DNA of 64,000 bases, taken from NCBI RefSeq assembly GCF_002854065.1, contig NZ_CP024147.1. One strand, 5' to 3'. Positions within the stretch are counted from its first letter, which is position 1. Every line of letters begins with the position of its first letter. Positions 14,131-15,583 of this stretch are shown piece after piece. This DNA comes from Escherichia coli (GTDB lineage: Bacteria; Pseudomonadota; Gammaproteobacteria; Enterobacterales; Enterobacteriaceae). Position numbers and translations under genes: made by a program. The notes under the pieces are model-generated. The model searched no databases. It was not told the origin of the DNA and saw only the letters and a program-made list of their open reading frames with translations.

Positions 14131-15524
14131 GCGGTACCCTCACGACGTGGTGCGCGTTTGCGTGGACGACGAGTACGACGACGCGGTGACGGTTCTTCAT
14201 CCAGCTCGTTGAGCATCCCTTTTTGGTCTGGTGGCGCGGAAACCTGGAACTCACCCCACCATTTCACCAGACGCTGCAGTTCAGCGTTACGTTCAACTTC
14301 AGCTCGCAAGGCCAACAGGTCATAAGCCGCACGGAACTTAGGATGCTCCAGCAGTTTCCATGCGCGTTTACCCTGACGTCGGGACATACGCAACTGCAAC
14401 TGCCAGATATCGCGGGTTAACGTCGTCAGACGTTTCGGGATTGCCAGTGAACGGCAGGCTTCGTCCAGCACGTCGTTCATCGCCAGCGCGAAAGCGTCGT
14501 GATAGGTCAGGCCGCTTTCCTGGGCGATCTTCTGTGCCGTCTCCAGCAGTGGGTACCAGAACATGGCGGCAAACAGGAACGCCGGGTTCACGCGCATATC
14601 GTTATGGATACGCGTATCGGTATTCTTCAGCACCTGTTCAATGATCCGCTCCATCGGGCTGTCGCCATTTTCCGTGAAGTAGCGGGTAATGGTCGGGAAC
14701 AGCGGCTGGAACAGATGATATTCACACAACAGCTTATAGGTTTCGTAACCGTAGCCCGCTTGTAGCAGTTTAAGCGATTCTTCAAACAGGCGTGCCGGTG
14801 GGATATCGTTCAGCAGGGTAGCGAGGCGAGGGATCGGTTCTGCGGTTTCCGGGCTGATGCGCATACCCAATTTGGCGGCAAAACGTACCGCGCGCAGCAT
14901 ACGTACCGGATCTTCACGGTAGCGCGTTTCCGGGTTACCAATCAGACGGATAACGCCGTCCTTCAGATCCTTCATACCGCCAACGTAATCACGGACGGTA
15001 AAATCCGCTACGCTGTAATACAGGCTGTTGATAGTGAAATCGCGGCGCTGGGCGTCTTCTTCGATGGAGCCGAAAATGTTGTCGCGCAGCAACATGCCGT
15101 TTTGCCCGCGTTGGGAGGTCGTGCGGTCGCTGACGTTACCTTCGTGGTGTCCACGGAAGGTTGCAACTTCGATAATCTCCGGGCCAAACATCACATGAGC
15201 CAGACGGAAACGGCGACCTACCAGGCGGCAGTTACGGAACAGTTTGCGCACCTGCTCAGGCGTGGCGTTAGTGGTTACGTCAAAATCTTTCGGCTTTTTG
15301 CCGAGTAACAGGTCGCGCACGCCGCCGCCAACCAGCCAGGCTTCGTATCCCGCTTTATTGAGCCTGTACATTACCTTCAGGGCATTTTCACTGATATCTT
15401 TGCGGGAAATAGCATGCTGCTCACGCGGGATCACCGTCACCTGTGGACGGGCGACTGCCTGTTCAGCCTCGCTTTCCTCGCGGCTTAGCACCTTGCGGCA
15501 AAAATTAGCGACTCGGGTAAAAAT
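14127..15524 (-). CDS. pcnB: Poly(A) polymerase I
   Basis: Track ORF 14127..15545; nucleotidyltransferase motif [10 protein letters not shown]; start placed at the ATT codon (+ strand 15522-15524) in line with the known non-canonical AUU initiation. Confidence 0.9.
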
Positions 15525-15583
15525 AGTACACCTCGGTAGTGTCAAACATCATTCAGGACAAAAAAATAGCGGCTAATCATAGC

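Follow-up and report, generated by a model that had tools for sequence, protein, structure and literature searches.

With high confidence, the pcnB gene for poly(A) polymerase I, which is carried on the minus strand of the window (the whole stretch of Escherichia coli DNA that was analysed, 64,000 nucleotides), is read from the AUU codon at 15524..15522, and this weak start behind a good Shine-Dalgarno sequence, probably by way of discrimination by IF3, keeps the enzyme, toxic in excess, scarce. The AUU start of pcnB is already known and annotated, and it was published in 2002 for the same gene and the same codon and with the same proposed role (Binns & Masters 2002, Mol Microbiol 44:1287, PMID 12068810). 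The start position, the Shine-Dalgarno sequence and the conservation of both were established here from the sequences, and there is no substantive difference from the published work; what is added to it are counts of conservation (in 80 species and in 5424 genomes) and a Shine-Dalgarno sequence that is strong and invariant.

The frame was read directly on the minus strand, where 15524..15522 is ATT and opens the conserved N-terminal peptide of PcnB. Starting at the upstream in-frame stop, the reading is TGA TGT TTG ACA CTA CCG AGG TGT ACT ATT TTT ACC CGA, and after CGA it goes on as GTC GCT AAT TTT TGC CGC AAG GTG. The ORF called mechanically (14127..15545, minus strand, 472 aa) opens at a TTG located 7 codons 5′ of the ATT; this TTG (15545..15543) is the second codon past the in-frame TGA, with TGT between them. 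When the frame was followed on the minus strand from the TGA at 15551..15549 down to codon 52, no in-frame ATG was found, and the only canonical in-frame starts between that stop and codon 52 were the TTG, GTG12, GTG29, GTG31 and ATG52. The features to which these readings refer are the following.

14127..15524, minus strand: pcnB coding sequence (poly(A) polymerase I), 465 codons plus TGA; the RefSeq coding sequences of CP53 and K-12 map here.
15522..15524, minus strand: ATT initiation codon, from direct reading and from the annotation of three RefSeq E. coli records.
15549..15551, minus strand: TGA stop in frame with pcnB, the 5′ limit of the upstream extension, from sequence reading.
15543..15545, minus strand: in-frame TTG, which opens the ORF called mechanically (472 aa) and is not considered to be the start.
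15489..15491, minus strand: in-frame GTG, codon 12, the commonest pick of automated gene callers.

The first-pass annotation had claimed that pcnB begins at AUU and that no in-frame ATG exists at the conserved N-terminus. The former agrees with the RefSeq starts of K-12, CP53 and a third strain and with the comparative data presented below, and the latter holds as far as codon 52. Its placement of the ATT at 15522-15524 was correct in position but not in strand, since the minus strand is the one that is read, and the plus strand carries AAT there. It had also referred to an upstream ATG at 15545, which was a misreading: the codon is TTG, and the closest ATGs on the 5′ side (15552..15547) lie in another frame. 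These two ATGs form an ATGATG that opens a short ORF of 15-16 codons (15505-15552, minus strand) ending at TAA. This ORF overlaps the Shine-Dalgarno sequence and the ATT of pcnB, and the ATGATG has no Shine-Dalgarno sequence of its own; the two ATGs together are confined to the Escherichia loci, the second one being kept also in one Citrobacter locus (L006).

When annotated pcnB starts were compared, a check that the first-pass annotation had proposed, the three RefSeq E. coli records all started at the ATT. In K-12 MG1655, b0143 spans 157729..159126, its first codon is ATT and its product has 465 aa; the start region of the window equals K-12 over the stretch compared by eye. CP53 is 100% identical to the window over 401 bases, and the first base of its pcnB (465 aa) maps to window position 15524. 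In strain 2017-02-2CC the pcnB start is on the same ATT, also with 465 aa, and the spacer is TATT.

The identity of the gene was clear from its product and its neighbourhood. The NCBIfam PcnB equivalog NF008634 scored 997 bits (cut-off 702), residues 1-464 were aligned to positions 1-468 of the 469 of the profile, and this profile begins at the residue encoded by the ATT. The PcnB model TIGR01942 scored 523 bits (cut-off 306), PF01743, PF12627 and PF12626 are found on the identical 465-aa database entry, and the protein carries the domain set required of PcnB, i.e., a nucleotidyltransferase head, an RNA-binding domain and an Arg-rich C-terminus. No mismatch was displayed with PDB 3AQK-3AQN over residues 28-442; the crystal constructs begin at Q28 and are uninformative on the N-terminus. 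The genes stand in the usual order, sfsA-dksA-gluQ-pcnB-folK, and the stop of pcnB overlaps the start of the following gene.

14127..14130, minus strand: ATGA shared by the stop codon of pcnB and the start codon of folK.

This overlap suggests translational coupling. Two database entries are PcnB-FolK fusions (P0017, 630 aa, and P0106, 584 aa), which presumably arose from stop loss or a frameshift at the pcnB/folK junction. On the other side of pcnB, the gluQ gene (window 15584-16510, minus strand) is given two different starts in RefSeq: the K-12 record has 927 nt (308 aa), PGAP has 897 nt (298 aa) for CP53, and the mechanical ORF of the window is the longer form (927 nt).

We then compared the pcnB loci of 80 Enterobacteriaceae species, whose proteins are 86-100% identical. 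The aligned start codon was ATT in 80 of the 80 loci, and GAGGTG was present at -10..-5 in every one of them. The distance between GAGGTG and ATT was always 4 nt, filled by ten sequence variants. The elements of the initiation region, as they stand in the window, are:

15529..15534, minus strand: Shine-Dalgarno sequence GAGGTG, invariant in 80/80 loci.
15525..15528, minus strand: 4-nt spacer TACT, fixed in length and variable in sequence among the 80 loci.
15498..15524, minus strand: codons 1-9, which belong to the translation initiation region and hardly vary at synonymous positions.

A lone ATT is unsurprising by chance; its invariance across the aligned loci is beyond chance. The Ile codons 32, 39 and 44 switch between ATT and ATC among the loci, hence the invariance of the first ATT is not a codon bias. 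A coding signature was observed from codon 3 onward: codons 2-13 were 100% conserved at the amino-acid level, with codons 3, 6, 8, 10, 11 and 13 varying synonymously, and codons 14-28 were variable in amino acid, with 1.5-1.9 bits of synonymous diversity at the Ala and Pro positions, which is a coding pattern. On the 5′ side of the Shine-Dalgarno sequence the loci were variable and carried non-triplet indels (e.g., TA-CGAGGTG versus TACCGAGGTG), and the 1-nt indels indicate that this stretch is non-coding. In 43 of the 80 loci not a single in-frame ATG, GTG or TTG was present from the upstream stop to the ATT. In three of them (L051, L063 and L077) the stop lies 4 codons 5′ of the ATT, and the only candidates are CCG, AGG, TGC/TGT, AAC and ATT. 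Judged from these alignments, the ATT marks the 5′ end of the conserved coding region and a usable canonical in-frame start appears to be lacking, as is typical of the AUU-initiated class.

Within E. coli the site was nearly constant. The 401 bases around it matched 5424 of 5426 complete genomes at an identity of at least 95%, and the 61-mer around the ATT was identical in 5416 of these 5424; the ATG version of the 61-mer had an exact match in none of the 5424. Of these 5424 matches at the start of pcnB, three were on records labelled plasmid, and two complete genomes had no match.

The Shine-Dalgarno sequence stands at a functional spacing from the AUU, as in the AUU-initiated class, and the duplex of GAGGUG with the 3′ end of 16S rRNA was calculated at -7.2 kcal/mol; among random 20-mers of the window, 2.2% do as well. 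A 'poor ribosome binding site' has been attributed to pcnB in a statement of PMC3561954 and in that of one more citing paper. In contrast, what we observed is an invariant 6-nt perfect match at a good spacing.

Translation could instead start at the TTG (15545..15543), so that a 472-aa protein is made in which the ATT is an ordinary internal Ile codon. The TTG is the first canonical in-frame start past the stop, and it would sit within the transcript from a candidate promoter.

15576..15604, minus strand: sigma-70-like promoter candidate TTCTCA-17 nt-TATGAT, which spans the gluQ stop codon.

This candidate was the sole promoter-like match in a scan of 15350..15900, and both hexamers, TTCTCA and TATGAT, were kept in most of 71 distinct upstream sequences. 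Five pcnB promoters (pB, p1, p2, pS1 and pS2) have been described (PMC2939334), and we infer that the candidate is possibly the published pB. The TTGACA at 15545..15540 was also considered as a -35 box and was discarded, because no acceptable -10 box lies 16-18 nt from it. In addition, 11 of 120 close homologue clusters are annotated from the position of the TTG, including the 472-aa Salmonella form, which has an ATG there. However, the TTG has no Shine-Dalgarno sequence (+0.4 kcal/mol), its position holds a start codon in only 28 of the 80 loci (26 TTG and 2 ATG), and more than half of the loci, the 43 mentioned above, are without any canonical upstream start. Furthermore, in many genera the TTG position is thrown out of frame by 1-nt indels that lie between it and the Shine-Dalgarno sequence, and in-frame stops come as near as 4 codons to the ATT. 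If the ATT were an internal Ile codon, switches to ATC like those at codons 32, 39 and 44 would be expected among the loci, yet the first ATT is invariant, and both RefSeq and the literature put the start at the ATT. We consider a start at the TTG very improbable, and the first-pass annotation was right to regard the upstream extension as probably unused. The comparison of species excludes that the conserved start lies there, since no Shine-Dalgarno sequence precedes the extension, most species lack it or have it in another frame, and stops in frame lie between.

The evidence on the 3′ side of the ATT bears on a start at GTG12 (15491..15489), which would give a 454-aa protein and turn the conserved sequence upstream of it into a non-coding leader. 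GTG12 is invariant in 80/80 loci despite the existence of four Val codons, and automated callers place the start of 33 of the 120 homologue clusters at this codon. Codons 1-9 are near-frozen at the nucleotide level, which could also suit a non-coding element. Against this, at codons 3, 6, 8, 10 and 11 all nucleotide variants are synonymous and amino-acid identity is 100%; the synonymous-only change along codons 2-13 means that the stretch is translated, so that GTG12 or any later codon is excluded as the main start. In more distant relatives conservative replacements occur 5′ of GTG12 and the frame is preserved. GTG12 has no Shine-Dalgarno sequence (+0.5 kcal/mol), and the arrangement that is invariant is GAGGTG, 4 nt and ATT. 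This start seems to us even less probable than that at the TTG.

With the start at the ATT, the freeze of the first codons has an ordinary reading. Mean synonymous codon entropy in the 80 species was 0.15 bit over codons 1-10 (0.17 over codons 2-10) versus about 1.0 in the rest of pcnB. We considered the freeze of codons 1-9 as a special element and rejected it, since dksA (5′ end near window position 17002, minus strand) shows the same: its first 14 codons are wholly frozen in the same genomes, which points to an ordinary constraint on the initiation region. No such synonymous freeze was seen in folK or in an internal stretch of gluQ. A structured riboregulator in the leader was likewise rejected. 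The segment from -61 to +60 (121 nt) folds less stably than its shuffles (z = +1.16), a small hairpin between the Shine-Dalgarno sequence and codons 2-4 loses pairs in a distant relative (L084, by eye), and no Rfam match to the leader was obtained at E <= 1.

The start proposed in the first sequence analysis of 1989 was ATG52 (15371..15369), and the main product could come from this codon by way of an internal promoter. ATG52 is the first in-frame ATG. The internal sigma-S-dependent promoter pS1, downstream of the ATT, is active in special conditions, and a truncated form has been the subject of speculation as the second of the two bands seen on PcnB Western blots (PMC2939334). However, pS1 is silent in normal growth, according to the same paper. 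In 71% of the species loci codon 52 encodes Leu, i.e., the ATG is not conserved, and its Shine-Dalgarno match is weak (-3.9 kcal/mol). A protein started there would also lack residues 28-51, a conserved stretch that is present in the crystallised enzyme. As a source of the main product, ATG52 is as improbable as GTG12. A second pocket of low synonymous diversity was noticed at codons 41-46 (15387-15404, minus strand; CGC AAA GAT ATC AGT GAA), with 0.37 bit over codons 41-50, and this pocket might overlap pS1 (PMC2939334). Codon 29 (15438-15440, minus strand) is ATG in 73 of the 80 species and GTG in Escherichia, and is thus always a potential start; neither codon 12 nor codon 29 (-2.6 kcal/mol) has a Shine-Dalgarno sequence in E. 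coli. A minor contribution from the TTG or GTG12 in E. coli, or a minor internal start at codon 12 or 29, is possible beside the main start at the AUU.

The arrangement was followed into more distant relatives. In L083 (62% identity, from a genome of 1.08 Mb) and in L084 (67%), GAGGTG, 4 nt and ATT were again found. In L085 (54%) the homologous position holds ATC, as in some infC genes; the stretch from the upstream stop to the conserved N-terminal motif contains no canonical codon, and the gene call has been shortened and begins at an ATG located 26 codons further downstream. ATG and GTG are the starts in relatives at 53% and 48% identity. A similar short hydrophobic/basic N-terminal segment was present in representatives down to about 45% identity, with conservative replacements (e.g., IFTRVSNFYRHVL) and with the frame kept. 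As read from these loci, the non-canonical start is old within the Enterobacterales and reaches somewhat beyond, and further out canonical starts replace it. This distribution agrees with what a passage of PMC3561954 relates of the 2002 paper. The order dksA-gluQ-pcnB-folK was also found in L084 and L085. In L084 (CP043324.1) a promoter-like segment, GTGAGCTATG...CCGCTATTTTTTGG, occurs twice in tandem 5′ of pcnB (1300-1510), and the gene itself (1501-2998) is broken into two ORFs (316 and 150 aa); a sequencing error, a frameshift or a pseudogene could account for this.

That the AUU is used, that it is limiting and that an excess of the enzyme is toxic is taken from the literature. In passages that cite Binns & Masters 2002, the AUU is called the 'actual translation start codon' of pcnB (PMC2939334) and is said to limit the synthesis of poly(A) polymerase I (PMC3561954); these passages bear out the statement of the first-pass annotation that AUU initiation is documented for this enzyme and limits its level. 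In such a passage PMC3561954 adds that many proteobacterial homologues may also use AUU. About 30-50 molecules of poly(A) polymerase I are present per cell, and a surplus kills by way of tRNA polyadenylation (PMC3561954). The genes infC and pcnB are listed as the only two AUU-initiated genes of E. coli, infC being the only confirmed one besides pcnB, and IF3 discriminates against AUU (PMC5499595, PMC9410913); initiation at AUU amounts to 1-2% of that at AUG (bioRxiv 10.1101/063800). A search of the literature for start-site ribosome profiling in E. coli that includes pcnB returned nothing usable.

On this basis the published mechanism is preferred. The well-placed GAGGUG would recruit the 30S subunit to the pcnB mRNA, where the initiator tRNA would pair imperfectly with the AUU, and IF3 would discriminate against such complexes, a role that for pcnB specifically we infer. 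A small fraction of the binding events would then lead to PcnB protein, and each cell would contain a few tens of enzyme molecules, a low and fixed ceiling on a toxic activity. The closest parallel is infC, the gene of IF3, whose start, like that of pcnB, is a non-canonical AUU; in both genes this codon is kept in different species and is subject to discrimination by IF3. In infC, however, the AUU closes a feedback loop on the gene's own product, whereas PcnB is not an initiation factor. The AUU of pcnB therefore sets a low ceiling and may couple synthesis of the enzyme to the level of IF3 rather than autoregulate it. A more elaborate proposal would be that GAGGUG, 4 nt, AUU and nine frozen codons form a tuned sensor of IF3 or growth rate across the Enterobacterales, and that a shortened isoform from codon 12 or 29 is the second Western band; from the sequences compared we regard this as unlikely.

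The consequences for annotation were examined in the 120 close homologue clusters of public databases. The correct residue opens 51 of them; the remaining clusters begin at GTG12 (33), further downstream (22), or with spurious N-terminal extensions (14). Gene finders restricted to ATG, GTG and TTG as starts are unable to call the ATT. In Salmonella enterica subsp. diarizonae and arizonae (L022 and L023) an in-frame ATG lies 21 nt 5′ of the ATT, where E. coli has the TTG, and in both loci the ATT and the GAGGTG are intact. The NCBI cluster P0013 (472 aa, 2921 members) is annotated from this upstream ATG of Salmonella, and the Salmonella PcnB annotation may thus be 7 residues too long. The value of these results lies in annotation quality, since automated callers often misplace the pcnB start, and the start itself is no discovery and has been a textbook exception since 2002. 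The conserved 13-residue N-terminus of PcnB is missing or altered in many database records, and pcnB is a clean case in which comparative data alone fix a non-canonical start.
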